This document shows positions 1 through 42,433 of a stretch of DNA of 50,003 bases, piece by piece. The DNA is taken from positions 1 to 50,003 of IMG/VR virus record IMGVR_UViG_3300005805_000127. One strand, written 5' to 3'. The notes beneath the pieces were generated by a model, which was not told the origin of the DNA, did no database searches, and worked only from the letters and a program-made list of their open reading frames with translations. The first letter of the stretch is position 1. Each line of letters starts with the position of its first letter. Made by a program: the position numbers and the translations under genes. The stretch comes from a virus (taxonomy: Duplodnaviria; Caudoviricetes).

Positions 1-165
1 GACTTCTTAAGAAACTGTGACAAGACTGTTTACATTAAAGTTAGGGACCATAGTGCCGAACTTAGAATGAAAACTGAAATGAAACCCTTAGATGTTAAGT
101 GTATCCATTGCAGTCACGAATATCAGCAACCCTTTACATTAAACCCAGCAGATTTTTTCGAATAA
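1..165 (+). CDS. 3' end of baseplate hub assembly protein (T4 gp26-like), partial
   Basis: Not in the ORF track. Frame 1 is open from base 1: DFLRNCDKTVYIKVRDHSAELRMKTEMKPLDVKCIHCSHEYQQPFTLNPADFFE*, with TAA at 163-165. A C-terminal CxxC knuckle and a 'DFF' ending are typical of gp26-like proteins of T4-like phages. Confidence 0.7.
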   Translation, partial: DFLRNCDKTVYIKVRDHSAELRMKTEMKPLDVKCIHCSHEYQQPFTLNPADFFE

Positions 166-206
166 GGCTTCTAAGTCTCGGCCCCGAGGGCATTCAGAAG
201 CTTATT
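153..206 (+). promoter_or_regulatory. Candidate -1 programmed ribosomal frameshift signal
   Basis: In-frame heptamer T TTT TTC (153-159), then a 5-nt spacer and a hairpin: AGGCTTCT(165-172)/AGAAGCTT(196-203) with inner stem CTCG(177-180)/CGAG(185-188). Confidence 0.6.
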
Positions 207-389
207 GAAAATTATGAGAAGGAAGTGGGGAACATTAAAAAGAGTGCCATTTCCTATGCCTGGTACCTAAGAGGTGGTATTTCATATGAGGATGTACTAA
301 ACATGTCGTATGAAGAAAGAAACTACCTAAGTGATTTAGTAGAAAACAATTTAGAAATCACTAAAAAATCTAATTTGCCTTTCTTCTAA
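153..389 (+). CDS. gp51-like baseplate hub assembly protein, probably expressed as a -1 frameshift extension of the upstream gene
   Basis: Frame-3 ORF (track 99..389) containing 'AWYLRGGISYEDVLNMSYEERNYL', resembling small gp51-like proteins. The GTG at 99 lies inside the upstream CDS, and the first ATG is at ~303. Confidence 0.6.
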   Translation, partial: FFRIRLLSLGPEGIQKLIENYEKEVGNIKKSAISYAWYLRGGISYEDVLNMSYEERNYLSDLVENNLEITKKSNLPFF

Positions 390-402
390 TCTATTCATTC
401 TA

Positions 403-467
403 AGTTGTCCTTCGGACAACTAATACCTTCACTAGTACTCGCTTCGCTCGTACTACGTTCGGTATTA
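403..467 (-). other. Two adjacent hairpins with GAA triloops and tandem G.A mismatches (ssDNA-type structure or bidirectional terminator)
   Basis: Stem 403-410/414-421 has loop GAA on the minus strand. A long hairpin pairs 421-427/461-467 and 433-438/450-455, with core GTAC-GA-GC-GAA-GC-GA-GTAC on the minus strand. Confidence 0.65.
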
Positions 468-487
468 TTTTATTTCATTGGATTTAT

Positions 488-840
488 ATTGCCGCCTTTG
501 AAGCCATGGTAGTGCTATTCAGCACTACCAATGGTTGGGGACATTGCCACGCCCTCTTGCCATTTGCCATCTATTCCCCGTTAAGTTAGCCCGTTTGCCA
601 CTTAACGCTACCGGTTGTCCTGTAAAGTTTATGGGACTGTAGTGAAATACTGTTACATATTTCGACAACGCATGTTACATATCCGCAAGATAGAGTTAGA
701 TATGTACTCATTGAGGGTTCGCAAACCTGTCGATTGCCCTCTCGGTGTTCCGTAGATTAATCTACGCTTACTCCAGAATCTGTCGGCACAGCACTACCTG
801 TACTTCCTCAAGGAGGGTCGAGCAACCCCGACCAAACGAA
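488..840 (-). ncRNA. Candidate large structured non-coding RNA, family not recognised
   Basis: No ORF of 60 aa or more; ~47% GC over 481-840 by hand count, higher than the flanking genes. Stems include 507-516/521-530, 579-586/600-607, 662-667/728-733, 676-684/698-706, 713-717/737-741, 751-756/761-766 and 816-820/829-833. Several G.U wobbles and AGUA-containing internal loops work on the minus strand. Confidence 0.65.
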
Positions 841-844
841 TTGT

Positions 845-1417
845 TTATAATTGATGTAAAGTTGATAAAACGTCAGTTGTAATTGTGTTTAATGGCTTTG
901 TGCCTGTTGTGCCTGATGAATAAGATTTAAGTACGTCTTTGTTGTGTTGAAAGAAGTGATCAAATTCGATGATGAGCCAATCCTTATATTTACTTGATGT
1001 ATAGTATAAAAATTGATCTGTTACCCAAGTCATTGTAGTTTGTACTACAACAAATTTACCTTTGCGGTTAAATTTCATGAACAATATGTTCAAGTCATCG
1101 GGTTCGGATACTGACATAAGTTGATCTAGCCAGCCGTCTAATACTTTACAGTTACCTGCAAGCACTAGATGAAACGGAAAGTCTGCATAAGATTTGCATT
1201 CTGCGTTGAATTTAGGGAAATTTTGTCCTGGAACAATGTCACCCTTAAAACTACGCACTTGCCCCTCATGCAGATATTGCTTACGTTCTTGGTTCTTACC
1301 ACCAACGTATGCACCGGATCCAGGAGCACGTATAAAACTTTCTCCGTATAGGTTACTAAGGAAGTTTGCAACTTCTCTTTCGAAACTTGATCCTTTTGCT
1401 TTCTGTGGACTAGGCAT
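845..1417 (-). CDS. Holliday junction resolvase, Hjc-like PD-(D/E)xK nuclease
   Basis: Motifs KGSSFEREVA, RAPGSG, GDIV and ECK; located in a recombination gene block. Confidence 0.8.
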   Translation of the reverse strand: MPSPQKAKGSSFEREVANFLSNLYGESFIRAPGSGAYVGGKNQERKQYLHEGQVRSFKGDIVPGQNFPKFNAECKSYADFPFHLVLAGNCKVLDGWLDQLMSVSEPDDLNILFMKFNRKGKFVVVQTTMTWVTDQFLYYTSSKYKDWLIIEFDHFFQHNKDVLKSYSSGTTGTKPLNTITTDVLSTLHQL

Positions 1418-1451: not shown

Positions 1452-2573
1452 TTAATTTGTCAGATACCCAACACTATAACTTTCGTCGGATACAGAACAT
1501 TTATTACACTTCTCTTCGCATTCTATGAATGCTTTATCGGGAGATTTGAAACTGTTAAACAGTTTATCCCAAATATCATCATTGACAATCTCTTCTAATG
1601 TACGTGATTTAATATTCATTAAGTCAGCATACTTACGAAATAAACTGTCTTGTCCTTTTATTTTCTTCCCTGTTATGAAACTTTCACGCTCATAATATGG
1701 AGCCGCTACCCAACTACATGGATAAATCTGTCCGTCAGCATTTAGATACAGACCGCGATTACCTATCATGCATAATGGAATCACGTAGTCATCTTTGTAT
1801 TCACTGACAATCTCTATCCATTTTTTCTTGTTCGTTTCAATGTAATCATGATTGTTTAATACTCTGTCGCTAAGTGGAATACTATAACGCTCATATCTAC
1901 CTGACTTACTGATAAACTCACTTCTAGGTTCTAAACTATCATAGTTGTCATCAGTATTGTAAGTACCAAATCTACTTCCAAATTTAATACTCTTAGTAAT
2001 TTGCAAACTATCACACCCATAAGCCTTAGCCATGTCTTGTATCTTTTGCAAATGATCCTGATTAAAACTGAATGCAATGGTAGCCCATGTAACATGAGCC
2101 TTTTTATTTGTAGTTACTGTAGTCAGTCCTTCTATGATACTGTCCCAATTACTGTTAACTCTGTATAAGTTATTGCTAGCGTTATCATAGCCGTCAATAC
2201 TGAAAGCAATTGTATCACGTTCATTTGATAACTCACGGAACTCTTCCCACCATTCTTTCTTTTTATAACTGCCGTTAGTAATTGTATAGATGTGAATATT
2301 GGGGTTAGTTTCTTTTACATATCTGCAAATCGCTAGATAGTCTTTGCAGTATATAGGATCACCTACATCACCGCACATTGTTAATCGTTGAACTTGTGTC
2401 TTTAGTAGTTCTTCACTAAAGCACTTTTTAAATAAATCTAGTGTTAATTCTTTTTGTAGCCACGGAATATCTTTTGGCATTTCTGTTCTAGGGCATCGAG
2501 GACATTTAACCGCACACTTACTGCTAGGTTCAATATGCCAATGATAAAACTGAAAACCATACTTATTTTTCAT
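1452..2573 (-). CDS. Radical SAM protein with C-terminal SPASM/Twitch-like domain
   Basis: CxxxCxxC (CAVKCPRC), 'CGDVGDP', 'ITNGS', 'FSIDG'; C-terminal Cys set 'PLC...GQIYPCSW...CEEKC'. Confidence 0.9.
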   Translation of the reverse strand: MKNKYGFQFYHWHIEPSSKCAVKCPRCPRTEMPKDIPWLQKELTLDLFKKCFSEELLKTQVQRLTMCGDVGDPIYCKDYLAICRYVKETNPNIHIYTITNGSYKKKEWWEEFRELSNERDTIAFSIDGYDNASNNLYRVNSNWDSIIEGLTTVTTNKKAHVTWATIAFSFNQDHLQKIQDMAKAYGCDSLQITKSIKFGSRFGTYNTDDNYDSLEPRSEFISKSGRYERYSIPLSDRVLNNHDYIETNKKKWIEIVSEYKDDYVIPLCMIGNRGLYLNADGQIYPCSWVAAPYYERESFITGKKIKGQDSLFRKYADLMNIKSRTLEEIVNDDIWDKLFNSFKSPDKAFIECEEKCNKCSVSDESYSVGYLTN

Positions 2574-3087
2574 ACACTGTTAATTCTTTCACAAAAGAAT
2601 TGTACATCACATATCTAACTGCCCTAGCAACTTCAACTGGATTCATTTTAGGTACATCTAAATGTTTAATCATCTCAGTATCAGTTGCACCGGGCACAAC
2701 AAGTGCTAGTCTACATCTATGGGGCTGTTTGACTAACTTTCTAAATGTATCACGTAATGCAGTTTTATGGTCACGATATGGCCAAGGCTGACTATCTAGT
2801 TCACGTTCTAGTCTAGGATAGTCTGTTACAATACTGCCTATGCTAATAATTGTTTTATTAGTATCTTTCCATTCATTGTAGAATGATTCTAATAAATCAC
2901 GCTGGTAGAATCCATCGTATGCATTGTTAATAAAGATATCTGCATCTTTACCTGCTTCTAATATCCTTTGAGTATCAGAAATTTCATATCCAACGGATCT
3001 ACTTAAGCCAATAATAGTATTGCCCTTAAGATTGTCAGCAATTGCTTTACCAATGCCGCGTGTGTGACCTGTTATGGCTATTATCAT
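2563..3087 (-). CDS. Short-chain dehydrogenase/reductase (minimal SDR)
   Basis: TGxxxGIG (TGHTRGIG), NNA, catalytic Ser region 'SIGS', YxxxK (YRDHK), 'PGATDTEM'. Confidence 0.9.
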   Translation of the reverse strand: MIIAITGHTRGIGKAIADNLKGNTIIGLSRSVGYEISDTQRILEAGKDADIFINNAYDGFYQRDLLESFYNEWKDTNKTIISIGSIVTDYPRLERELDSQPWPYRDHKTALRDTFRKLVKQPHRCRLALVVPGATDTEMIKHLDVPKMNPVEVARAVRYVMYNSFVKELTVYEK

Positions 3088-18472: not shown

Positions 18473-21400
18473 ATGGCTACAACAAGAATTAGAACACTTA
18501 ATTTCTTACCGGAAATATTCCAAACCCCAACTAACAGTCAGTTTTTGGGAGCAACGCTTGACCAACTGGTAAATCCACCAATTACAAAAAGAATTGAGGG
18601 ATATGTTGGTAGTAAATTAGGCTATGGTGTAAACGCCAAAGACTATTATGTAACAGAGCCTACTAAGGTAAGAACGGATTATCAATTAGATCCGGGCATT
18701 GTGTTCACTAAGAAAAATGAATCTACAGCACAAGATTTTATTACATATCCTGGCATCTTAGATTCATTAAGATTAGAAGGTGGTGTAACCAATAATAATG
18801 ATCGCATGTTTGAGAGTCAATTCTATTCATGGGATTCATTTACAAACTTAGATAAGATTATTAACTTTAATCAGTACTATTGGTTACCAGACGGCCCTCC
18901 CGCCGTTCAAGTTGCAGCCGCAACAGTATTTGCAACAAACGATTATATCGTTACAGACTTAGCAAATGGATATAACATCAGAACATTAGGTACTGGTGCA
19001 GGATCAATCAACCCCACATTAATATTATTACGTGGTGGTACATATAACTTCTATGTAAATCAGAGTTCACAGTTTTGGATTCAAACAGCACCAGGTACTA
19101 GTGGGTACAATCCAACACAACCTAACGTTTATACTAGAGATGTGTTTGGTGTATCTAACAACGGTGCAGAACAGGGCATAGTAACATTTACAGTGCCTGC
19201 AAAAGATGCACAAGATCAATATAATTTCCCAGGTAACAATCTAGTTGATGTTGTAAGTACATTACCATTCGCACAGATTAACGGACAACTATTATCAGCA
19301 GTTGGCAGCATTGATGGAGTAACGGCACTTAACGGATTAACCGTTATGTTCTATGACACAGGTGTGCCTAATGAGACTGGATATACATCACAGTATTTTG
19401 GTGAGGGAGAGTATGATACCAATATCGGTTTAGTAACTCCATTAACAATTACTATTTCTGCTACCGATGTATCAGGTGCAATTACATGTAATTCTACTGC
19501 AAACTTAGTAGCAGGACAAACAATAACATTTGATGGAACTCCATTTGGTGGATTAGATTCTTATGCTATATCTGGTACAATTTATTATGTTGATAGCATA
19601 CTAAGTTCAACTCAGTTTACAGTTACATCATATCAAGCAGGAAGTCCTGACCCACAACCAGTTACATTGTCAACAGCATTTGGTACAATGACAGGTAACA
19701 TCAATCAAGGTTTGTTAGAAGAAGGATACACTTCAATAGTAAGTCAAAACTTCTATCAAATTAGTTACATTGGAGAGCCTAGTGATCCTGTATTAAGATT
19801 AACTCCAGTTAGCATTATTCCAACTGACCAACGAATTACTCCAGTATACGGTTCATCTTGGATCAACAGAGGATTTTATAGAAACACAGCAGGTGTTATA
19901 TCATTGATTCCTGCTATCACAGCACCGTTGGATACATTATATTATCAAGACGGTACAAGCCCAACTAAAGTGGGCATGATTAAAATTATTGAAAGCAATA
20001 TCACTAATACATTAAATGTTGAAACTGATATTTTAGGTAAAAAGAATTTCACATCTACAAATGGTATTGCATTCACCAATGGATTAAAAGTTGAATTTGA
20101 CGGAGACGTAATACCTTCTAGTTATTTGCAAGGACAATATTATGTTGAAGGTGTAGGTACTGCAATTGAGTTAGTGCCTGTAAATTCATTAGTATGCCCT
20201 GAAGATTTTACAGAAGGTGACTACATCCCATATGATACTGCGCCATTCGATATAGGAAACTATGACAGTAACTTGTATGTTCCTGTATTGCAAGATTATA
20301 TCACAATAGCAAGAAATGCTATTAACAAAAATGCATGGTCACGCAGTAATCGTTGGTTCCATATTGATGTTATCAACTCTACAGCAGAGTACAACAATAA
20401 CCCTGACATTGTAAACGTATATGCTACTGCTGAAGCAAAAGCAAAGCGTCCTATTATAGAATTTTATCCTAACTTAAAACTATTTGAGTCTGGTATAGTA
20501 GGTAAGAGTGCAGTTGACTTTATTGATTTTAAAGCAACAGACGCACTTTCACAAGTATCAGGACAAACAGGATATTACCCAGATGTTGAAACATATACTG
20601 ATTTTACAGGCACATTAAACGGTGTAGTAAGTGGAACATCTACTACAGCAACAATTGCAACATCAGATATTGTTGGAACATTCCAAATAGGTCAGTATGT
20701 TACAGATTTACGTTTTAGCACAATAACTACCACTTACCCAAGTTTGTTGCCCTCAGACGCACAAATTACAGATATAGTCGAAGCATCAGGTACAACAACA
20801 TTGACAATTGGTTGGGGTGATACACTAACATTCTCAACTGTTAACAACGTGCAGTTTGTTGGGGACGACCAGCAGAATGACAACTATAAAGTGTTTGATG
20901 GTGCAAGAATTGTATTTGCCGCAGATACTAACGTAAATGTTAAGAATAAAATTTATATTGTTAATTTCTCAACAGTATCATCAAGTTTATTACCAGTCAT
21001 TACATTGACTGAAGCACCAAACGGAGATGTTTTACCACAAGATCAAACAGTTGTTCTTAGAGGTTTTAACTATCAAGGTGATACTTATTTCTATAACGGC
21101 ATTGAATGGATTAAAGCACAACAAAAGACTGATGTAAATCAGCCTCCATTATTCGATGTAGTAGATAGTAACAATATAAGTTTTGGTGACAAGACTGTGT
21201 ATAGAGGCACAACGTTTATTGGATCAAAACTATTTGCTTATGGTATTGGATCTGGTTTAGACGATACAATATTAGGTTTCCCAATACGTTATAGTTCTAT
21301 AGATAACGTAGGTGATATTTCATTTGACGTATCATTGAACGTTGATACATTTGACTATGTAAGTGGTACTGATCCTAAAACACAAAAAGTTAACACAGGT

Positions 21401-24400
21401 TACGTATTAAACTACAGCGACCGTGAAGTGTATGAACGTGAGTTGGGTTGGCAAACTGCTATTGGACCTAGCGTACAATATCAAGTTTTCAGTTTTGATT
21501 ATTTTGTAGAAAATCCACCAGCAGATTATGTTTGCGATATAGCCAAATTAGATGATGCTGATAGCGCATGGCCAACCATACAAGTTTATATCAATAACGT
21601 ATTGCAAACTTCAGATGCATATGCTGTTTCTGTTGGTGCTAATAGCACAACAGTTACATTGAACAATATTCTTAATGAAGATACTGTAGTTCAAATATTG
21701 TTGTTAAGTGATCAGGTAAGTCTAAAATCTTACTATACAGTACCAATTAACCTAAACAACAATCCATTAAACGAAGATTTAACCACTGCTAATATTGGTG
21801 ATATCCGCGCACACTATCAAACAATATATGCAAACAATCCTAACTTCCAAGGACCAATGTTTGGTTCTAACAACTATAGAGATTTGGGAGACTTAGTACC
21901 TTACGGCACAAAGATTATTCAGAACAGTGCGGCATTGGTATTGCCAGGTGCATTCTTACGTAAGCAAAATCATAATCTATTTGATTCGTTGTTATTCAAC
22001 AGCAGAGAATATATTAAATTTAAAACACTATTGGTAGATACTGTAAACAGTACAGATTATTCACAGAGATTCTCACCTTCATATATCTTAGATGATGCAT
22101 TGGATCAACTGTCTGCTGCCAAAAGTGAAAGTCAGGCCTTCTTTTGGTCTGATATGTTACCAAGCAAAGCACCGTACATAACCAATACGTATACGTTCAA
22201 TAATGATTTGGATACCAGTGTGTATCCATTGAGCAGAATCTATGATTTCTCAACTGCTAATTATTATGGTGTACTAGTATACTTGTCTAGAGTTATAGAA
22301 GGCACAGTTGTTGAGCGCCAGTTAATAAAAGGTGAAGAGTACACAGTCAGCGATGATAGTAAATCATTGACAGTTGTTATACCATTACAACCAGCAGATC
22401 AAATTATTGTAAAAGAATACAATCAGACATATGGATCATATATTCCTAACACACCAACTAAGTTGGGATTGTATCCTGCATTTATCCCTGCTGTAGTATT
22501 AGACAGCGACTATACACAACCAACATATTTTATTAAAGGTCATGATGGATCATACACTAAGTTGTATGGTGACTACAATCCTACATTAGGAGTGTTAATA
22601 GACTACAGAGACCAAGCATTGCTTGAGTTTGAAACAAGAATTTATAACAACTTGAAATTGAGTAACCCAATACCAATTCAAGCATATGAAGTTACACCTG
22701 GTTTCTTCAGAGACAGTGATTATTCATATGACGAATATCTTGAAATTTATGAAAAGAATTTCTTAAACTGGGTAGGACAAAACAGATTAAATTACAAGAG
22801 ACAGTATTACGATAAGAATAATCCGTTTACCTTTAACTATACTAACTCAGGTAATAAGTTAAACAATGAACCTATACAACAGGGATATTGGAGAGGTATA
22901 TACGAATATTACTTTGGAACAAGTACCCCAAATGAAACACCTTGGGAATTATTAGGTTTTGTAAATCAACCAAGTTGGTGGACAGATCGTTATGGTCCTG
23001 CTCCATACACAAGTGATAACTTAATACTATGGGGTGACTTAGAGCAAGGTATTAACTGGAATAACGGTAATCCTTATGTTATCCCAGAAGAAGTTAGACC
23101 TAACTTATTAAAAGTATTACCCGTAGACAGCAATGGAAATTTATTGTCACCATTAGATGCAATTGTTGGGAACTACAATTCTCAAACCTTCCAACAAGAG
23201 TGGGTAATAGGAGATGATGCTCCTGTAGAGTTAAGTTATCGTAGAAGTAGTACATGGCCATTTGATTTGATGAGAATAATGGCATTGACTAAACCTGCTA
23301 AATTCTTTAATTTGGGCGTAGACTTAGACAATTATAAGTACAGCACAGAGTTTAATCAATATCTTGTTAATGATAGAAGTCATTTAATTATTAGCAATAT
23401 TGAAATATATGGTACTGGTATACCAAAGACTTCATACATCAACTGGATCGTTGACTATGAAAAACAATTAGGTATTACTGCTACACAAAATATCAAAGAC
23501 TTGTTATTCAATATCGATGTAAGATTGATTTATAGACTAGCAGGCTTTAGTGATAAGACATTGCTTAAATTCTATGTTGAAAAGGGTACACCTAACAGTA
23601 GAAACTCTTCACTATTGATACCGGACGAGAGTTATCAAGTATTGTTATATGATAATCAACCGTTTGATAAAAACGTTTATAGTTCTATAATTATACAGAT
23701 TGATCCTGCAGGCTTTACGGTTTATGGAAACTCACAGTCAATGGCTTACTTTAGAACATTGACTCCTGCCAATAATGGTAACTATGATTACATTAAGGTA
23801 GATAATTCTAATGTTAAGATAACAAAAGATTATTCTCCTAAAGAAATTCTTGTCCCATATGGCACAACATTCTATAATGTACAAGACCTTTCACAGTTTA
23901 TCGCTAATTATGGCGCATGGTTAAACAGTAAAGGATTTATATTTGATCAAGTAGAGTTTGGTTTAGAAATCAATTGGGGTCAAATGATTGCAGAATTCCT
24001 ATACTGGGCACAGACTGGTTGGGGAGAAGGTGCAATATTGACGTTGAATCCAGGTGCTACAATACTGAAAGTAGATCAACCAAACAGTATCGTTCAACCA
24101 TTAACAGTTCAGCAAACTAACTTTGTACTGAATCAAAACTTATATCCAATACAGGCTGTAGATATGTCTGTATTCCGTGACGGTACATTGTTTACAGTTA
24201 AGCCGCTAAGTCAGGGTGATACAATTGCTTATGGTCAATTTAACATGAGCAACTTTGAACACGGTATAGTGTTTGATAACGTTACATTGTTCAATGATAT
24301 CATTTACAATCTTGTAACCGGATTGCGTCAAACACGTATCACAGTTCGTGGTACTAAGACCGCTGAATGGAACGGTACTGTTACTGCTAGTGGATTTATT

Positions 24401-27400
24401 CTCAACCAAGACAACATACAAGAATGGTCAAGAGAAATCAAGTACACTAAAGGTTCAATCGTATTGTACAAAAACAAATATTGGACAGCGTTGAGAATAG
24501 TTCAGCCTGCTAATGTGTTTAATGAAAACGATTGGAAAGAAACTGAGTACAACGAAATTCAAAAGGGCTTGCTACCAAACAGCAGTACACGCAGTTACGA
24601 AAGTACATTGTACTACGATGTGAACAGAGCCAATCTTGAACAAGACGCAGATTTATTAAGTTTCAGTTTGATTGGATATCGTCCACGTGACTATCTTGCA
24701 TTAGCAGACCTTACTGACATTACACAGATTAATGTCTATAAGAACATGATTAAGAACAAAGGTACACGTAATGCAGTTGAAGCATTCCGTGGCGCTAATT
24801 TGCCACAGGGCGGTATCGATTATGAAGTGTATGAAAACTGGGCAATCAAGTCAGGACAGTTTGGTAGCATAACAAATAATAACTTTATAGAATTCAAAGT
24901 TAACCAAGAATATATGACTGCTAACCCATCGTTAGTAAGTCTAATCAACGGTCCTTCAGTTGCTCTAGTACAGCAAGAAGTACCAGTATACAATTTATAT
25001 AACTATAGCACACCTGTACAAGACCCAAATATACTAGCAACTATTCCTAAGAATGCTCCTGCTAGAATTTATCCTGACGCAGGCTATGTGAACTTCAATG
25101 ACGTAAAGATGAGTTCATATTTCTATTCAGGATTGGCTAACGCAGTTAATAAGAACGGACAAGTTGTACCTATACAAGATTTCTATGTTAGAAATTATGT
25201 TTGGCTTGCAGACTATCTTGCAAAATGGCAAGTGTTTACCCCTGTACAGAACGGTAGAGTAGTTAGTGTTAGAGCAAATCCAAATGGTACTTCAACTGTA
25301 ACATTTGCAGAACCACATAATTTATCTAAGTTAGACCCATTTGCAATTATAAACTTTAATTCAAATGTTGATGGATATTATTTTGTAACAGAAGTAGTCA
25401 ATATATTTGAAGTATTGATTAATTTATCATTCCTTACTAATGAAGGTCAAATCAACGGTGAGGGTATCGTAGTAAGATTCCAATCACAAAGAGTTGATAA
25501 ACCAAGCGATATCAACAACTTACCATTACTAGACAGTGAGTTCATCAAGAACACTGTTTGGGTAGATGAAAATACTGATGGCAACTGGGCAGTATATCGT
25601 AAGAGCATTAATTATCAATTTGATAGAGAAGTAACAAAAGATAGTTCAAGTTCTTTTGGTAGCGCAGTAGCATATACTCCTAGAATAGGATACTTGTTTG
25701 CAGATGCGGGATTAGGCAAAGTCTATCGCTATGTGTTAAATGATTTAACTAAAGAATATGACAATATTCAAACATTAACACAGGGAACAAGTTTTGGTTC
25801 ACAAGTAATCATAGTTGATAATACAATATTCGTATCAGAACCAACTAGCGGAACACCTAAGATTTACGTCTATTATGTAAACAATAGCATATTGTCAGAC
25901 GATATCATTCCATATCAGAGTGCAATAACTGCACCCGGTGGGGTCACAAATTGGGGTAGTGCATTATCAGCATCACCTGATGGCAACTGGCTATATGTAT
26001 CAGATACAGACAACAACAAAGTTTATGTCTATAGACGCCAAAATTTTGAAGTAGACGCAGGATATTTAATTGCTGGAAAAACTTATGCAATTACTAATGT
26101 AGGAGACACAGACTTTGCTACAATTAGTACAACTCCAACAACTACATTAAATCAAATTGGTGAAGTGTTTATTGCTACTGGAGCGGGCACAGCAGGCGAA
26201 ACTGGTAGAGCAAGACAAATAAATTATGAACTAGTTAATATAATTGATGGTTCAGTATTAGGCTTGTCAGCAGGTGACAACTTTGGTCATTCAATATCTA
26301 CTGACTACAACGGCGACACAGTTTTAATTAGTGCTCCATATGTTGACTACAGCGGTTCAATATTGAATTGGGGTAAAGCATATGCTTATCATAGAAGCAC
26401 ACAAACATTTGAAGCACAATTAAACACAACAGGGCTTCAACTGTTTACATTAGCATGGACTGGTACAACGCTCAATTCTGCTACCACTCAGATTTACGCA
26501 TCAAATCAAATTGGTGTAAACGTAGACTTTACAGGATATGAAAATTATCCTATAGTGTTTGCTGGATCTAATTTTGGTACTACAGGATTACAGGCTAACA
26601 AAGTTTATTACATTGATACTGTAGTAAGTTCAACAAGAATTACAGTTAAAGAATCACGTTCAAGTGCTTCAGCAGTAACATTGGTTGCTGAAGCAGGGTT
26701 AACTATTAATGGATATCTACAGTTAGAACCATTATATGTAACAGTTAACGGAACATTAATCGCAGACAATAACTATAGTGTTATTGGGTCAACTCTCAAC
26801 TACACAGCACCGTTATTAGCAGGTGACATTGTTAATGTCAGTGGTGATAAGTTCACATTGATTCAATCATTTACAACTAACAGAGACCCAAGAGTTGGTG
26901 TTCAATATGGATTTAGTGTTGCAACTAACAATCCAGGAACTGATTTATTAGTTGGCGCGCCATTCGACTTATCAGACATTAATGAAGAGGGTGGCGTATA
27001 TCGTTATACTAACGGTGGTAGCAAGTATGGCGTTGTAATAGGTGTTGATGAAGTAAACGTCACAGCAAATAGAGTATTGTTAATTAATGGATATAGCGTA
27101 ACTATTCCTCCTGGCAATGCTACTGTAGCCGCAAATGCTATTGTATCAGAAAAGATTACAAACATAACAGCGGCTGCTACAGATGATAACAAGTTAATTA
27201 TACAGATTATCAATACTGATTTGACACAACCAAATGAAAAGTTATTGATTACTGCAATTGACACCAATACATTAACTGAGTTGGGCTTACAAGTTTATAC
27301 TGAAACACAAGTTATCAGATGCCCACACAAATCAGGTCCTACACAGTTTGGCTACAATATTAAATTCAATGAATTGAATTCTATCGTAGTCAGCGCACCA

Positions 27401-30400
27401 GTTGCAACTAGATTTGCAGGAACAAGGTTTGACTTCAGTGACGATGAAACTGTAGAAAACGATACTATATTTGACAACAATGCAACACAGTTTGTAGATA
27501 AGAGTCCAAACTGCGGTGCTGTTTACATGTATGATTATTTGGCTAACTTCAATGAAAATCTCAATGATCCTGGTCAATACATATATGCTCAGAGTGTCAA
27601 TAACTATAACTTAGATTATGGATTCAGTCCATTGTATGGACAAGCATTGTCATTCTCTAACAACAGAGTATTAGTAGGTTCACCAAACTTCTTACCTGAA
27701 GTTTATGATGGACAGATTGTTATCTATATTAATCCAACTGGAGAAGCAGATTGGTCAGTATATAGAGAGTCTGCACCTGTTGTAGATATCAATAAAATTA
27801 AAAACATACAGTTGTTTAGTGCTGAAACTAATAACACACTAGTCAATTTGGATTATATTGATCCATTGCAAGGCAAAATATTGGGTGCATGCAGAGAGAA
27901 TATTGATGTAGTATCTAATAATGATCCCGCAAGATATAACAGCACTGATGCTGATCAACCCGGCGTAGTATGGGGAGCAAGTCAAGTAGGTCAATTATGG
28001 TTCAATACTACTAACGTTCGTTTTGTAAACTATCACCAAAACAATGACGCAAATTACAATGCAAAATATTGGGGAACTGTTTTCCCAGGCAGTGATGTTG
28101 CTGTGTATAGTTGGATAACAAGCAATGTTCCACCAAATCAGTATATAGGACCAGGCACACCGTACGATATTACGTTGTATTCTACACAAAATATATTGAA
28201 TGCGTCTAACAACGTTACACCTGTATATTTCTTCTGGGTAAGAAATAGCAATATTATATTCAGAAAAGAAGGTAAAACATTATCTGATACTATCATAGAA
28301 ACTTACATCACAAATCCAAAGAATTCAGGTATCAGTTTCTTTGCACCATTACTACAAAATGTATACGCAATATACAATTCTGGTTCATACTATAATGCAA
28401 ATGATTCAGTATTACATATCGGTTACTCAAATGGTAGAGGGGATGATAGTGGACACGATGAATATACTCTTATCAGAGCAAATTATGCCGATGACTTCTT
28501 GCCAGGTTTACCAAACGAATTATTAACACATGGCTTTGATGCAAACATACACGGCAATACTCCTGCAGGCAACAATAGACCTGAATCATTATACGATAGA
28601 TTATTAGATAGTTTAGCAGGTGTCGATGAAGGCGGTGAAGTTGTTCCCAACCCATGGTTACCAAAAGCAGTACAAAGTGGTGTGCTTGCACGACCAAGAC
28701 AAAGTTTCTTCTTTGATAGATTTGAAGCATTAAAGAATTACTTGACATACGCTAACGAAGTATTAGCGCAGTATCCAATATCAGAAATTAGAAGAAATGC
28801 AAGTTTCTTGTTTGCTGAAGGAGAATTCTTTAATACTACAGATTACTGGGAATATGTAAATTGGTGGGCAACAGGATACGATAATAATACTAAATCTGCA
28901 ATACAAGTTGCAATCTATGCTGATTTGGCTACATTAACTGTCCCGGTTAATACAATCGTTACTGTTAATACTAACGGCGATGGCAAATTTGAAGTATATC
29001 GTTACGACGGTGACGGTGTATGGACACGTATTGGTTTGCAACAAGGTACAATCCAATTCAAATTGTATCTATGGGATTACGCAGCCGGCAAGACTGGCTT
29101 CGGTGATAACTTCTTTGATACAAGTTCATATGATGAGTTCCCAAGTGAGGAAACACGCTACATTGTACGTGCATTGAACGAACAGATTTATACAGATGAG
29201 TTATTAATCTACAGAAACAAGTCACTAGTATTGTTATTTGAATACATTCAAAGTGAGACTGACGAATCACAAAACTATCTACCATGGTTGAACAAAACCT
29301 CATTGGTTGATGTATCACATAAGATTCGTGAACTACGTCCCATCGAAGTATTCCAAAGTGATAATCAAGATTTCTTAGCCGGCTATATTAATGAAGTTAA
29401 GCCGTATCACGTTGTGGTTAAAGAATTCGTTTTCAAGTACACAGGAGAAGAAGTATTTGATGGTAACATCACTGACTTTGATTTACCTGCTACATATAAC
29501 ACAGCATTACAGCAATATATTACTCCTGAGTTAGTACAGTCTAATGTTTCATCAGACAGTCAGTACTTACCGACCAACCCAATATGGCAAACACAGCCAT
29601 ACAATCAATGGTTCCAAAACAGGGGCGTATCAATTGGTGGACAAACAGAGTTTGAAATTACTGTACTAGCATCGTATCTGACATTAAGAACATCATTTAT
29701 TCTTGTTGATAATGCTCAAGGATTCCCAATCAATGGTCTTATTAGAATTGGTCAAGAATTACTAAGTTACTCATACGTTGATAGAGCAACCAATATAATC
29801 AGCGGAATTATAAGAGGTGTAAACAATACTCCTATATCTGATCATATCCCAGGCGAAAAGATATTCATTGATTTGCCTCCTATCGTAGTATTGAATGGGG
29901 GTAGAGGATATATTGATCCTCCTAGAGTTATTGCTTATGTTGATGAGGCAGTTTACGGCCCACCGTTAAGAGCGGCAGTACTAGAAGCAGTAATGACATT
30001 GGATTCAGTATTACAAGTTAACGTGATAGATCCAGGTCAAGGTTATCCAGTACTACCTGAAATAAGAATTGATCCAGCAGTACAGATTATATTCTCAAGT
30101 GCTGATGTAAATTCATTTACTAATACAATTAGATTGTATGCTCCTAACTTACGTACCGGCGACTTAATACAATACAAGAAGGGCGAGATTGGTAGTGAAA
30201 TAGGTGGTCTAGTAGACAGACAATGGTACTATGTAAACTTGTTAGAAAGCGATCCAACAGCAGTTGTAGGATTGTATCAAAGTTACGGCGATGCTCTGAA
30301 TGATAGAGATAGAATACAGATTTATAACGATGGTAGTGGAAACGACCACGCATTGAATTTAGGTGCTAAAGCCAGTGCTATCACTACAGCAAGTCCGGTT

Positions 30401-33400
30401 CGTGAAAACAATATCAAGTTACGATTTGATAGAACAACATATACTTCACAAGTGCAAGACTGGGAAGCAGGACAATACTACGGTGCTTTCTTTGCAGGAA
30501 GTTATTCTAACAGCGAAAAAGTTTCAAGTTCCGCAGTTAAGTTGTATTCTTCACAACCTCCTATCGAAGAGATACTAGCATCGGCGCAGGGTGTTGCGTT
30601 TGAAATTGTTTCAGTAAACAATGATAGAAATCTATCTTGGTCAAGTTTTGTACGTACAGTTGATAGAACAGTATCTACTAACAATTTAATTAGATTAAAG
30701 CCATACGATGATGGCACGGGCGATCCTAACAGTTCAGGATCAACGATTGGTTTCTATGTTGGAATGCCAATTAAGTTTAGCGGTCAAATACCTAGCCCAT
30801 TGACTATAGATACAATATATTATGTTCATAGCATAGTTAATATCACAGACTTTACTGTATCTGCTACTGAGGGCGGACCTCAATTAACAGGATTCAGCAC
30901 AGTAATTATACCAGCAACGCCCGGTGCATATGCATATTCAGGTCAAGTTGTTGATAAGGCTGTGTTAACTGTGAATTACCCAGGTATACTAACAGCCACT
31001 GCTACTCAAACAGCAACTAATAGAGTTACTATACCATTAACTGAAATAGGTACAGGTGGAACAATTGGATTCTATGTTGGACTTCCATTATTCTTCACTG
31101 ACGGGGTGTTTGGTGGTGTAACACAAAACCAAGTTTACTACGTTACAACAATTGTTGATAACCAAACATTCACAATGTCAGAAACTACTGACCCATTGAT
31201 GTTAAGTGTTACTGCAACTACAGCAGGAACTAATATTATCACAATTGAAGCAAACGAAGATTTGTCTGTCAATGAACCTATAATATTCAATGAGATGCAA
31301 ATTGCGGGAGCGGATGTAACATCATTTGGTAACATCGTATCAGGTACTACTTACTACATCAATGAAATTGTAAGTACTACACAGATTAAGATATCTACAG
31401 CGATTAACGGCACTGTATTTGCATTGACTACTGTAGCGGCAGCAAGTAATACTGGTTGCACATTAACAAGTCAAGTTAATACATTACCATTAACTACTGC
31501 AACAGGCTCAATGACAGTCAACGTTTCATTACCAGTAAGTCCTGGTCAAGTTAACGGTCAACAATTTATATTGTACGAAACATCTGGTCAGTATGCAGAC
31601 ATTCAAGTTGTTGGCGCAGATATCACTAACCTAATTGAAAGAACACTAACTGCTACATTAGAAAATGATAAAGTTGGTATTAAGAATTCAACCGGTGGTG
31701 TAGACAATTTCTATTACAATTTACCAATCAGAGTAGAAACTCCACCCGCAGGATCAGGTTTGTCAGCAGGTACAACATACTATGTTGTAGAATATACAGG
31801 AATGGAAGATCCATTAAACCCTGGAGAATACTTCCCTAACCTAGAAACTGAAGTATACAACACATCTTCAAGTTACAACATTTTGACATGCGATTCTACT
31901 GATAATCTATATGTGGGCATGTCTATAGTCTTTACTGGACAAGCCTTAGGTGGTATTGTCATTAGTGATGAATACTTTGTAAGATATTTTGTTACTGATG
32001 CAGGTGATTTCGTAGTTGGAAAAACATACACAATTGAAGTACCAGGTACTACAAATTTCGTAGCAATCGGTGCAGCCGACAATAACCCAGGAACAACATT
32101 CGTTGCAACTGGAGTTGGAAGTGGAACTGGTACAGCATACGGTGAGTATCCTTCAGTAGGTGGAACTAAATTTAAGATTTCAGATGTTAAGGGCGGAAGC
32201 GTTAAGACTCTTACTACATCGAATGGATTAATGACTGGTACTGGAGATCCATATGTCAAACTATCGTTGAGTTCAAGTGGATCTCCTGAAGATTTGAACT
32301 ATACAAATACTGAATTTAATTTGGTGCAGTTCCCAAGTTCAAGCGAATCTCCACCAATACTCCCAACATTTGATGTAAGTTATATCTTAGGTGGTTACAG
32401 AGTATTAATTAGTAACGGTGGACATGGTTTCGCAATTGACAACCAGTTGGTTATACCAGGAAATCAATTAGGTGGTAGTACACCGACAAATGATTTGACA
32501 ATGATTGTTAATAGTATTGATAGCAATGGTGCAATAACTGATGTAATTTGCTCAGGGACAGTACCAGGTATCAATGCAAGATACTACCTAAAGGTAATAT
32601 CACCAAATCAATTTGAAGTATACTCCGATCCATTAATGCAAGTACCTGTAAGTGGTATCGATTTCCCATTCGTAGGATTTACAACAACTACTGCTACAGC
32701 GGTTACTGCATCAAATGACAGAGTAACAGTTACAAGTTCATCAGATTTTGATGTTAATGATCCTGTAGTGTTCACTGGTACTATGTTCTCATCAGAAATT
32801 AGTGTTGGACAAACATATTATATCTATGATAAGCCAACATCTACCACAGTTAGATTGACAACTGAGCCAGGCGGGTCGATTATTAACTTTACAAGCAATG
32901 CCAGTGGTTCTATGACAATGGCTAAGGCAGGTAGTTTTGCACTGTTACCAGAACCATTCTACTTCAATCAGAGTATTGTTAAGTTTAATAACAGAGTTTA
33001 TATCTGTGTGGTAAGTAACAATGACGATGAATTCATATTTGGTAAGTGGGAGTTATTAGATCCTGCTGACCGCAGATTGAACGCATTGGATAGAACAATT
33101 GGTTACTATCAACCAACTGATAACATGCCGGGTGTAGACTTAACTCAATTGTACACGGGTATTACATATCCAAATGCAACATATTTAGGCAATCCTTTTG
33201 CGCCAGCAGATCAATTCACATTAGACACTGAGTTGCAAGGTCAAGAATTCTATCCAACAGAAGTTGACGTTACATCAGTTATTTGGAACGGCACAAATTA
33301 TTTGGCTGCAGCCAATATACCAACATACTCAGCAGTATTGGGTAGTTCAACAGGTGATACATGGGCAATCGCTAAACTAGCAAACGTTGGCATTGGTGCA

Positions 33401-36400
33401 ACTGATATCATCTATGCAGGTGGATATTATATTATTACTTCTACAAATAGCGCAACACCTATCTATAGAAGCAATGATGGTATAACATGGACAACTAACG
33501 GCTACTTCACACCATATGGTTCTACACCATATGATGATATACCATATGATATGACTTCAATTAATATTGCGGCACTATCATTGTATTCTGTTGCATATAA
33601 GAACGGTTACTACATGGCAGTAGGCGAAAGTATTGTACGTAGTGACGATACTTACGTATGGAGACAAAGTTTTAATTTCAACACGGTATTGAACAATACA
33701 CTATATAGTGTTAACCCAATTACATTATTGTCAGGACCTGTAACAATATTTGACGGATTTATCGCAGTTGGTAAAGGTCAGCGTTATGACTATTCAACTG
33801 GATTGACACAGATAGTTGATACTAACATTATTGTTCAGACAACTGACGGGATAGCCTGGACTCAACTTCCTTCTGTAACTAAGAAAGGAATGTATGGAGT
33901 TACTTCTAACAGTTCTATTGCATTGATTGTCGGTGAAGATGGTATAATTTACTATTCACAAAACGGAACTGATTGGATCGGTGTTACTGAGACACAAGTA
34001 ACAGGTATCAATGGTTCTACTGACGTATTGGGTATTAGTTCAATCAGTGGATTAGCAGTAAATGATGCTGTTAGATTTACAGATTCATTTGACGTACTAA
34101 ACAGTGGCACAACATACTATGTACATACCGTAGTATCTTCTACACAGATTCAAATTACAGACGCAATTGGTAATCCTCCAATTGATTTGTCAGGTGCAGG
34201 TTCTATACCAGCACAAACAATTATGTACAAGTACCCAAGAACAGAAACATTACGTGACGTTCTTTGGGCTAACTCACAATTTATGGCAGTGGGTGATGCA
34301 GGTAGAATTACTACTAGCCCAGACGGTGTAACTTGGACAGAAAGAACATCAGGTACTATTCAGAAACTTAATGGATTAAATTATGTTTCAGGTAATACTT
34401 GGATAGTAGTTGGTGACAATAATACTATATTAAAGAGCGTAGACAACGGTGTAACGTGGGAAAGTTCATCATTGTTTGTTGTAGCACCTACTGTATACGA
34501 TGTAGTTGGAGATCCATTCCAAGCAGGTTACGGTCCAGAAGAATTAGTACCAGGTGTTGTTACGGACGACTTAACAATGACGGTAATTACTCGTCCTGGA
34601 ACAAACTGGCCAATTACAGAATATGCACACAGTGGATATAATGTTGTATCATATGAACTTGTACCGACAACAGTAACACAGACCATTTACTATTGGGGCG
34701 GTAACGTATTAGTTCCTGCGCAGGTAGCATGCTTTGTTATCGACGGTACAACTGGATTATCAACATCATTGTATGAATCATTAGATTATACCGTTGATTG
34801 GATTAATAACGCTATAATATTGAACACTCCAATTAATTATCTAAGCCCATCCACTGATACATTAAGAATAGATGTATATGAAATTGGCAACGGTGATCAA
34901 TTAGTAAAAGCAAATACTAAGACAGACCCAATTAGAAACAATAATACAACTGGTTTCAATGAAATATATTTGAATTGCAACTATTCGAATCTATATTTCC
35001 AAGGCAGCGGTGTAATTAGACCGGGCTCACATGCTATTGAAGTGACCGCAGTTGCAACGAACGGTATTAATAATACTATCGTTTGTGATGATGTAACTCA
35101 GTTCACAGTTAATGCTCCTATATATTTCCAAGGAATAACATTTGGAAATATATTGGAAGACACAGCGTATTATGTAAAATCAATTAGTACGGTTACAAGT
35201 AGTATTACAGTATCAGCAAGTTACAATGCAATAACAGGTACCGCAGGTCCTACACTAACATTGACTACTGCTACAGGGTTAATGACTGCTATTATACAAA
35301 CCGGTACTGGTAGTGTTTGGACAGACCCAATTGTATATCACAATGGTACACAATTGGTATTAGGTAAAACTAATTCAGTAACAAGAACTAAGTCATCAAA
35401 TAATGCTATTACTACAAATTCGACAGGTGGTTTAATTGTTAACACTCCGATCAAATTTAGTAATACAATGTTTGGTGGTGTAATTATCCCACAAACTGTT
35501 TATTACATTAAGACTATTGTAGACAGTAATGAATTTACAATATCAGCGACCCCTGGTGGCCCAGTTATATCATTAACAAATGCTACGGGCGGTGCTGAAT
35601 TTGTAACTAACGATTATGCGTTTGGTCCTCAACCAAACGGAGTGTCTGCTAAAATGATATTGGCAGCACAATATGATAACTCTGTAGATTATTTGGTATA
35701 CAGCGTCTTTGGTGAAACAGCCCCAGATCAATATGCATTCACAATACCGCAAGTACAAGTGTTTACTGGTGACGGATCAACGTCTTTATTTGCATTAGAT
35801 AATTATGTAGGAGATGATAATCCATATAACGCTATTGTAGAAATTAATGGTCTACGTATAACCAAAGCGTTGTACAATATAAGCAGTGTAACAAATTCAA
35901 TATTATTCAATAGTCCTCCACTGAACGGTAGCACTATTGCAGTTACTACATATAATTCAACGGATCGTCAGTACTTTAATTCACAATATGGAATTACAGG
36001 AACACCAGGCTCAGCATTCGTACAAGTAATTGTTGAAAGCACTAATCACAGTGAGTACCCATTTGATGCAGTAATAAATGCAGGTGATTTTGATATTGGC
36101 TATGAATATGTGATTGATACAGTTGGAACAACTGACTTTACATTAATTGGCGCAGCAAGTAATACACCAGGAGTATCGTTTATAGCAACAGGTCCTGGAA
36201 CAGGTACAGGTACTGCATTTGTAGGATATGATACTACTGCATACGATGAAGAGTTGAATTGGTTAACATGCGCACCTGGCTATGATACATCAGGATTGAC
36301 TGTGGGTAGTTCAATTGTGTTTAGTGCTCCTACACTAGACGGTATCGTTGCAGGTACAACATATTTCATAACAGAAATATGGAATAGCACACAATTCGTA

Positions 36401-41327: not shown

Positions 41328-41633
41328 ATGGATACCAAAACCTTAATTGCAGAAGCCAAAGCACGATTTAATCATAATTCGGCTAAGGCCTATCTCAAAG
41401 AAAAATACAACAGTAAACTATTAATAGCAGAGCAAGGTGGACTTTGGCGAGCCGATGCTCAGACCATTTCGTTCCTAAATTCTTTTACCTCTAAAAAGGT
41501 CGTCTTATTAGACACTTTTGACAACCCTGTTGAGGTTGATAGAAAAGCACTACTCAACACATTAACTGAAGTTAACGAAACAGTAATGAAAGAATGGTAT
41601 AACGAATGGCAAGAACTAGAAACAAAAAGGTAA
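41328..41633 (+). CDS. Hypothetical protein (101 aa)
   Basis: AGGAG RBS, first gene of the tailoring cluster; no motif recognised. Confidence 0.75.
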   Translation: MDTKTLIAEAKARFNHNSAKAYLKEKYNSKLLIAEQGGLWRADAQTISFLNSFTSKKVVLLDTFDNPVEVDRKALLNTLTEVNETVMKEWYNEWQELETKR

Positions 41634-42433
41634 ATCGAGGCGTTATTCTATTTGCATTCAATTCGCCTAGATATAACTATTATAAAATGGCAGAGTATAC
41701 TGCCAAACGTGTCAATCATTTTTTAAATCTTCCTGTAACACTTGTTACGGACGAAGAATCTAAACCTGAGGGTGATCATCCGTTTGATAAGATAATCACT
41801 GTGGTTCCAGACAAAAACAACATACGTGAATATCAAGTTTGGATCAACAAAGGTAGATATCAAGCATATGAATTAAGTCCATATGATGAAACATTATTAT
41901 TGGACGTTGATTACATGGTCAACTCTGATAAGTTGTTAAAGACATTTGACACTGGGTTAGACTTTTGCTGTCACGACAATACTAGTTTTTTAATGCATCC
42001 TGGCGCCGCACAAGAAGTACTAAGTTCATACAGTTTTAAAACTCTTTGGGCTACAGTAGTCATGTTTAGAAAAACAGAACGTGCTAAACAAATATTTGAA
42101 TGCTTAAAAATGATACAAGAAAATTATAGTCATTACGCTGACATTCATAGTTTTGTAGCAGGCGTATATAGAAACGATTACGCACTTACACTTGCATTAC
42201 GCATAGCAAATGGACATAGTGTTGCACCAAACGATATAATCCCATGGGACTTAATACATGTGGGTAAGAATACCACTGTGTATAGAAATAGTGACGATCC
42301 ATACAATACAGAATTTGTAGTAATGTTTGATAATTGGCAACGTGGTAAAATTCGTAAAGAATATACAATCATTAAAGACTGCGATTTTCACGTGATGAAT
42401 AAAGATAATTTTGTGGAGTTGATTCGTGAATAA
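41606..42433 (+). CDS. GT-A fold glycosyltransferase-like protein
   Basis: 'RGVILFA', 'PVTLVTD', 'SPYDETLLLDVD' (DxD), 'RNDYAL', 'FHVMNK'. Confidence 0.7.
   Translation: MARTRNKKVNRGVILFAFNSPRYNYYKMAEYTAKRVNHFLNLPVTLVTDEESKPEGDHPFDKIITVVPDKNNIREYQVWINKGRYQAYELSPYDETLLLDVDYMVNSDKLLKTFDTGLDFCCHDNTSFLMHPGAAQEVLSSYSFKTLWATVVMFRKTERAKQIFECLKMIQENYSHYADIHSFVAGVYRNDYALTLALRIANGHSVAPNDIIPWDLIHVGKNTTVYRNSDDPYNTEFVVMFDNWQRGKIRKEYTIIKDCDFHVMNKDNFVELIRE

Follow-up and report, generated by a model that had tools for sequence, protein, structure and literature searches.

A Conserved, Covarying RNA of Jumbo Phages with a Self-Matching Word around Its Terminal Hairpin: A Possible ColE1-Like Replication Primer

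The gap behind a PD-(D/E)xK nuclease gene in a T4-like jumbo phage contains a minus-strand RNA gene, at ~845-488, which is a real, conserved and covarying phage noncoding RNA. The gene lies in a 50-kb linear virus record, hereafter called the window (the whole stretch of DNA that was analyzed), and its product appears to represent a new class outside every catalogued family tested. Its nearest working analogy is RNA II of ColE1, a likeness that is one of analogy and not of family membership. What is new is a 6-10 nt self-matching word placed around the terminal hairpin. We propose that the RNA would act in cis as an R-loop replication primer working like ColE1 RNA II, a reading to which we assign a probability of roughly 0.45; ribozyme and scaffold roles may also be considered.

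Genomic Setting and Reality of the RNA Gene

The RNA is flanked on one side by a plus-strand gp26/gp51-like gene and on the other by the minus-strand nuclease gene (table 1). The gap between them (389-845) is the longest between open reading frames (ORFs) of at least 100 amino acids in the list for the window, as the initial annotation had stated in calling it the only long noncoding stretch; its description as a GC-rich element in an AT-rich genome is equally borne out by a GC content of 0.476 at 488-840 versus 0.371 for the window. Past the gap, the minus-strand genes are those of the nuclease, a radical SAM protein, a short dehydrogenase-like protein, SbcC, SbcD and a late sigma factor. By blastn, 79 of 80 related loci have the RNA following the nuclease gene; the remaining one is a sequence that ends 20 nt past the stop codon. 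A 21-nt pattern retrieved another 119 stretches, and each of them scores against the profile of what we call family A. This family comprises 181 full-length copies, reduced to 93 nonredundant sequences with a mean identity of 67%. The gp51-like gene adjoins the RNA in 78 of the 80 pattern-found loci having flanks (tblastn), the two misses being due to short sequence.

Both strands of the region fold better than shuffled sequences (z = -2.8 for the minus and -3.4 for the plus strand), so that folding alone cannot assign the strand. The pairs 821/828, 684/698 and 588/599, which had been taken to work on the minus strand only, are indeed G.U on that strand and A.C on the other. Over nine helices (two of them slightly out of register) in the 93 homologues, G.U cells number 319 versus 81 A.C cells, which favors the minus strand. 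A protein-coding gene was rejected: only 137 of 1192 indels relative to the window are multiples of three and the median longest ORF is 40 amino acids, the indel lengths thus ruling out a conserved reading frame.

The earlier proposal of a large phage noncoding RNA is upheld, for the minus strand, by conservation and covariation among the homologues, in which 19 column pairs, 15 being canonical, reach significance under a tree-based null (93 sequences). Over the window, Rfam models give no match at gathering threshold and, at relaxed E-value, weak chance matches to miRNA or sRNA outside the core. Likewise, no Rfam model of RNase P, tmRNA or a group I or II intron matches the RNA, which interrupts no gene, and neither do the Rfam covariance models of small ribozymes, GOLLD, ROOL, OLE, raiA or ARRPOF. 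Comparison of the window RNA with annotated phages by blastn returned two 29-nt chance matches. We found no description of the family in the literature searched, which lies mostly outside subscription journals. Six motifs are absent from six supplementary files of PMC10690425; files 1, 2 and 4 of that paper lie beyond these six and may hold the family.

Elsewhere in the window, a TTTTTTC run (153-160, plus strand) lies at the end of the gp26-like frame and is followed by a start-less gp51-like frame reaching 389, while an ORF of 6,596 amino acids is found among the structural genes (18473-38263, plus strand). The radical SAM/SPASM and short dehydrogenase-like genes are inserted between SbcC and the resolvase (1452-3087, minus strand); in several relatives, unlike the window, SbcC directly precedes the resolvase.

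Table 1. Features of the RNA locus in window coordinates
Feature	Position	Strand	Evidence and remarks
End of gp26/gp51-like tail-chaperone gene	153..389	+	Most constant neighbor of the RNA; named via annotation of cultured relatives
Two hairpins with G-A-A triloops (421-467, 402-420)	402..467	-	Candidate single-stranded-DNA loading site
A/T-rich spacer, A-rich on the RNA-like strand	468..487	-	47% A, 31% T over 90 family-A copies
Structured RNA body	488..845	-	blastn in 79/80 loci, family profile match 844-482, covariation; ends approximate
Site 2	488..495	-	Same bases as site 1 without bulge, word 493-488; proposed DNA target (opposite strand)
Terminal hairpin	507..530	-	Two-sided changes in 3/10 pairs, support mostly from invariance
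Site 1	543..552	-	Bases 552-551, 2-nt bulge, GGCAAU 548-543; proposed template-strand guide
Helix between core and pseudoknot partners	580..606	-	Two-sided changes in 7/7 pairs
Core helix 669-664:613-619, one bulged C (614)	613..669	-	Covariation
Helix; its loop 693-689 pairs with 567-571 (pseudoknot 1)	673..710	-	Two-sided changes in 7/7 helix and 5/5 pseudoknot pairs
Helix with conserved internal and apical loops	713..741	-	741/713 and 739/715 significant against tree-based null
Helix 815-812:771-774 around variable hairpin	771..815	-	1/4 pairs varies
5' hairpin	816..833	-	Two-sided changes in 7/7 pairs, 78% of cells paired
PD-(D/E)xK nuclease	845..1417	-	PF24608, phrog_244 RusA-like resolvase; neighbor, no obligate partner
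Two AGGCAC words	900..914	-	In unconserved last nuclease codons; 5' leader may begin here

Secondary Structure

The proposed secondary structure of family A comprises 65 pairs, for which 94% of the cells are paired in 45 lake-phage homologues and two-sided changes occur in 48 of the 65 pairs, those of two pseudoknots included. Its covariation score is 0.48, whereas shuffles reach 0.18 and slid partners no more than 0.10; the slid control leans toward the structure, which was built from the same family. Among the stems originally drawn from the window sequence, covariation sustains those at 507-530, 579-607, 676-706, 713/741, 751-766 and 816-833, but not those at 617-637 and 662/733; in place of the latter two the homologues have the long-range pairings 669-664:613-619, 636-633:575-578 and 693-689:567-571. 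The stem proposed at 644-663 falls in a variable hairpin. The family-A consensus shows sequence conservation of the loop-E-like AGUA/GAA motifs.

The core helix (613..669) is the most conserved element in all subfamilies, and the segment 636-633 inside it forms pseudoknot 2 with 575-578; the same geometry, with compensatory changes, is present in the cultured phages PA5oct, 121Q, GAP32 and XaC1. The helix at 713..741 is the counterpart of a GGCUCUG...CAAC module in PA5oct and in the families that we call B and C, here treated together as B-C. The 5' module at 771..815 ties family A to B-C, since the A profile matches 6 of 81 B-C sequences there (E <= 0.01). Two pairings recognized by eye, ACCG/CGGU and GGUAG/CUACC, are invariant in family A and unconfirmed.

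A strand-exchange switch noticed by eye, in which the interior of the core helix would pair alternatively with the terminal hairpin or site 2, was considered and found to be unsupported (cognate rank 0.46-0.62).

Distribution in Lake, Marine and Cultured Phages

Divergent copies were recognized by eye beside distant homologues of the nuclease, and pattern searches yielded 43 viral loci and 118 metagenome stretches. For families B-C, 141 candidates had enough flanking sequence; an iterative profile accepted 119 of them and excluded 22, leaving 81 nonredundant sequences. These copies have the bulged-C core helix, the preceding helix-loop module, the terminal hairpin and the tail. In PA5oct, 121Q, GAP32 and XaC1, the gp51-like gene and a resolvase are separated by an ORF-poor gap in which the same core is found, with compensatory changes. 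A descriptor combining the core helix, the preceding motif, the terminal hairpin and the duplicated word finds 60/93 family-A, 57/81 B-C and 35/37 enterobacterial-phage sequences, as well as both PA5oct copies, over a background of 29 matches in 2.39 Mb.

None of our sequence profiles joins the enterobacterial-phage family to A or B-C, and the family-A profile leaves PA5oct, SCTP-2 and Phosso undetected; a covariance model of the B-C core gives E = 1.8-2.6 for the window, 0.04 for PA5oct and 0.7-1.9 for 121Q and XaC1. The enterobacterial family is thus assigned to the same RNA as A and B-C by synteny, orientation and one descriptor, and not by a sequence profile. Rak2-like phages have multiple copies on one strand, with four in 121Q, five each in GAP32 and XaC1 and three to five in five more genomes, spaced 34-102 kb apart; this common orientation also follows that of the flanking genes. 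Each of four long lake and marine records has one detectable copy, and three profiles revealed no second copy in those designated G002, G003, G006 and G007.

The RNA is not universal at this place, since RaK2, Vibrio 2.275.O, SCTP-2 and Atu_ph07 are without the gap. The syntenic gaps of Phosso and XacN1 fold, yet they give only background-level descriptor matches and no recognizable core. These hairpin-rich gaps of 0.7-1 kb (Phosso and a relative, L083 2987-3990 and L203 2062-2981; XacN1, L485 6829-7514) possibly hold a different or very divergent RNA; that of Phosso adjoins RNase HI. The core motif also occurs below the profile cut in L361 (901-964) and L362 (182-243), the former passing the descriptor, and further subfamilies may therefore exist.

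Among bacteria, 2 of 5,426 Escherichia coli genomes contain a copy, and that of LR-29-1 lies on an integrase island (L520 4958-14857) next to ffs. No Rep protein was recognized among the six proteins scanned from this island, which also has a broken integrase and DUF4326, DUF488 and dual-OB genes alongside the RNA. In GTDB genomes the B pattern gave no match and the A pattern ten short matches extending at most ~35 nt.

Some gene calls in these phages deserve comment. Four tiny annotated hypothetical proteins inside the syntenic PA5oct copy and its promoter (L081 3142-3954, ~75.7-76.5 kb) are probably not genes, and similar calls occur in 7t3, Kaldavass and Yen9-04. G003, G007, 121Q, GAP32 and PA5oct each contain, within a frame of <300 amino acids, a match of ~80 amino acids to the DNA polymerase III alpha domain, and the gene may be split. 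The 524-kb record G005 has two 5'-3' exonuclease genes (41479-41955 and 488686-489159) and may be a joined assembly.

A Self-Matching Word around the Terminal Hairpin

In all subfamilies a word of 6-10 nt lying ahead of the last hairpin (site 1) recurs identically just behind it (site 2). Two or three matching bases are followed by a bulge of 1-2 bases in site 1 and then by six to eight matches. The word, which is not G-rich and amounts to only 8-10 bp with the bulge, differs among lineages and among sister copies of one genome, even if such sisters have most of it in common; in 121Q, 7t3 and EJP2 one position is mismatched. Family A, in which most copies have one same word, provides a single pair of positions (552 and 495) that covary as identical bases, and 42 of its 90 copies have at least six matching bases versus 24% of noncognate pairs. 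In B-C (81 sequences), identity between a base of site 1 and one of site 2 accounts for five of the nine column pairs that reach significance, and at least six bases match in 68 of 77 parsed copies versus 25% of noncognate pairs. For the 37 enterobacterial-phage copies, the columns of each site have their best partner in the other one (UU20/CC17 and GG21/AA14/GA2). When copies of the same genome are compared, site 1 agrees more closely with its own site 2 than with that of a sister in 48 of 52 comparisons (worse in one, tied in three; 33 of 39 copies parsed); the comparisons are not independent, and shared ancestry inflates the count.

No complementary partner of the word was found within the RNA of the 37 enterobacterial-phage copies, and a complementary third copy is no more frequent than in shuffled sequences (0.645 observed versus 0.671, 110 sequences). 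Copy-by-copy identity together with the lack of an RNA partner is what would be expected if the RNA paired with the template DNA strand, and we consider it probable, judging from the pattern of substitutions, that the RNA in its folded state pairs with the template strand of its own gene. Guides are recognized by such a feature, a stretch of RNA with the same sequence as one strand of a DNA site, as in the RNAs of mobile nucleases and recombinases (omega RNAs or HEARO, TnpB reRNA and the bridge RNA of IS110); unlike these, the phage RNA has no fixed cognate protein gene, its target would be its own gene and no transposon context is seen.

The same signature would suit a ribozyme or RNA-guided machine, in which site 1 would find the site-2 template and cut, nick or open it, or the RNA would cut its own 3' end. 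Such an activity could serve a recombination hot spot, nick-primed replication or the start of packaging, or cleavage of its own 3' end could leave a primer. The invariant unpaired nucleotides and conserved bulged C of the core fit this idea, as does the junction-resolving enzyme, of two unrelated folds, that adjoins the syntenic copy. Nonetheless, no Rfam ribozyme matches and most Rak2-like copies have no resolvase beside them, and we regard a catalytic or guided role of this kind as unlikely.

Leader, 3' End and DNA-Type Tail

Upstream of the RNA body, other subfamilies have two to four words of the AGGCAC type just behind their own promoter; at least two AGGCA/AGGCT words are present in 61 of 73 marine and lake B-C copies versus 5 of 77 family-A copies. 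A sigma70-like promoter site occurs in 25 of 64 B-C copies and promoter-like sites are found in PA5oct, while none was detected in the window between 380 and 1500. The terminal hairpin was examined as an intrinsic terminator and rejected, as no run of five T follows it in any of 164 copies and a terminator scan was empty. Behind site 2 lies the DNA-type tail. GNA triloops are especially stable in single-stranded DNA, and in family A hairpins of the form cGNAg occur on the RNA-like strand in 86 of 90 copies versus 2/90 on the other strand and 6/90 in the RNA body, a bias that is weaker in B-C (34 versus 20 of 74).

Relationship with the Adjacent Nuclease

The RNA had originally been described as starting right behind the nuclease stop codon and as a possible partner of the nuclease; the position is correct for the window but not general in the family, and the partnership finds no support. 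In favor of a guide or partner of the adjacent PD-(D/E)xK enzyme, the RNA lies directly behind the gene in close relatives (79/80) and also in 71 of 80 pattern-found loci (eight are short sequences, one is without it). Yet of the 43 B-type loci, 15 have the RNA upstream of the nuclease, 13 in divergent orientation and two downstream, and in 13 no nuclease match was found in the flank retrieved; about two dozen distant homologues of the nuclease have no gap beside them. Moreover, in 121Q, GAP32 and XaC1 the neighbor is a nonhomologous endonuclease VII, which takes the place of the nuclease and cannot be aligned to the window protein (E 0.19), and most copies in these three phages lie far from it. 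There is no fixed linkage to one cognate nuclease family, and we hold a guide or partner function to be most improbable. No solved structure of the nuclease was found.

Expression and ncRNA004 of PA5oct

Parts of the RNA are covered at low depth by contigs from four RNA runs, each of a different study; in three of these runs contigs extend across the nuclease stop codon into the RNA. The runs containing the window stretch are mostly labelled aquatic or freshwater. The neighboring nuclease and radical SAM genes are also under low-depth contigs, which do not reveal strand or ends, do not allow expression to be ranked and may be of DNA origin; no weight is given to their absence over 400-600.

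The bridging contigs, together with the location of the window RNA at operon convergence without its own promoter, would agree with a transcription attenuator or a structured 3' trailer terminating and stabilizing the mRNA of the recombination genes. Stand-alone copies with their own promoter (PA5oct, and the 25/64 sigma70-like sites of B-C), the 13 of 43 copies divergent from the nuclease and the lack of a U tract in 164/164 copies speak against this role, which we judge very improbable; even taken together, the trailer and nuclease-partner readings account for a small part of the likely explanations.

A transcript is known for a cultured relative. Lood et al. (2020; PMC7318152) list ncRNA004 of PA5oct (246116-246734, plus strand) as an ORF-less transcribed region with 0.08, 0.03 and 0.02% of phage reads, highest early (Table 1 of that paper); the published passages on it give no structure, family or function. 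Compared with the syntenic PA5oct copy, ncRNA004 has identical blocks of 34 and 20 nt and passes the descriptor, and on these sequence grounds it is a member of the present RNA family. A promoter-like site precedes it at 246069, and its published 3' end, approximate because it derives from read cover, is the last base of its site-2 word. No gene-level counts for PA5oct were found in the supplements. Another transcript of this phage, ncRNA003 (L518 ~1060-1370), fails the descriptor and looks like a structured RNA of another kind, of the size of bacterial 6S RNA or tmRNA.

These data bear also on a trans-acting ornate RNA, i.e. a scaffold like GOLLD or ROOL, a decoy or a protein sponge, for which sites 1 and 2 would be twin binding sites or a parallel tertiary contact. 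The size and pseudoknot density resemble those of ornate RNAs, site 2 is inside the PA5oct transcript as published, sister copies are alike over most of the word and the E. coli island copy has no recognized Rep among the six proteins scanned. However, a shared protein would leave unexplained the changes that track each copy's own site 2 (48/52), ncRNA004 is rare rather than abundant in the published table, over the RNA and its neighbors the contigs of the four metatranscriptomes reach only low depth, and a trans-acting RNA does not account for the strand-specific DNA-type tail. We therefore consider this reading rather doubtful. GOLLD, ROOL and OLE are comparable in being large, pseudoknotted and phage-borne and of unknown function (as far as PMC12286853 covers them), but the present RNA has no Rfam match, its measured member is rare and its duplicated word and DNA-type tail suggest action in cis.

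A Proposed Transcription-Primed Origin Similar to ColE1

The modules follow one another in the order of promoter or read-through, folded RNA, self-matching site, absence of a U run, A-rich spacer and hairpins on the strand that would be displaced. In the mechanism that we favor, the RNA polymerase would pass site 2 while the already folded RNA presents site 1, which, being complementary to the template strand at site 2, would nucleate a persistent RNA-DNA hybrid. The transcript 3' end, left by the polymerase or trimmed by host RNase H or a phage nuclease, would then prime leading-strand synthesis, and the displaced strand would fold its GNA hairpins and load helicase or primase. In the window, the sigma-SbcD-SbcC-resolvase transcript would carry the RNA as its tail, and in most other subfamilies the RNA would be transcribed from its own sigma70-like promoter.

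Known origins provide the comparison. ColE1 requires pairing between an rG stretch of its primer RNA and a dC stretch in the template strand (PMC4412123; PMC5043065), and oriF and oriG of T4 combine a promoter with an unwinding element and form a priming R-loop (PMC4412123). The phage RNA resembles ColE1 RNA II, as described in those papers, in being a long structured transcript that runs into a site where RNA pairs with the template (as proposed here) and in having candidate loading sites on the strand that would be displaced. A stretch of RNA complementary to the template near the origin, as in ColE1, is indicated here by the identity covariation of sites 1 and 2, the pairing itself being predicted. 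The phage word differs in being of mixed sequence, lineage-specific and bulged, not rG:dC, and its RNA has two pseudoknots; the 121Q copy has no blastn match in 72,556 plasmids. Likewise, T4 oriF and oriG consist of a promoter and a downstream A/T-rich stretch, with several origins per genome in a T4-like genome, but the description in PMC4412123 mentions no conserved folded RNA, and T4-type phages gave no blastn match.

The primer reading is favored by the several same-strand copies of Rak2-like phages, 34-102 kb apart as expected of dispersed cis sites, and by ncRNA004 being, in the published data, a low-level early transcript that ends at its site-2 word; action in cis is further supported by site 1 tracking the site 2 of its own copy (48/52). 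Against it, strand-corrected GC skew has no switch at the RNA in three of four long genomes, two of them complete, and only G006 has a skew break, at 8-14 kb from the RNA. GC and TA skew thus give no consistent switch and no support for an origin, the skew being dominated by the coding strand. Three of the four nevertheless have the RNA within ~10 kb of the main gene-strand divergence. A search of five records revealed no phage RNase HI, although four of them have a 5'-3' exonuclease domain. The absence of a window promoter, the short, bulged and non-G-rich word, the relatives without the gap and the same-strand orientation that also follows flanking genes count against it too. Should site 2 belong to the mature RNA, two binding sites or a parallel-strand contact could account for the identity, and the fold is more ornate than primer function needs.

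We tentatively extend the primer proposal, at lower confidence, to a clade-wide, self-addressed and protein-independent replication initiator RNA with an internal template guide, found in jumbo phages of lakes and seas and in cultured ones, possibly catalytic and captured by bacterial islands. In the catalytic version the RNA would make its own primer end or nick the DNA.

Significance

The self-matching word offers a sharp handle for compensatory mutation on a large orphan RNA, one that GOLLD-like RNAs do not have, and with cultured hosts at hand the family can be tested now. If the primer proposal is true, these RNAs would mark where replication may start in an entire group of giant phages, among them the cultured therapy candidates PA5oct and, to judge by its near-identical flanking proteins, Paride. 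The family would then represent a second way of initiating replication from an RNA primer, unrelated to the first and carrying its own sequence address.
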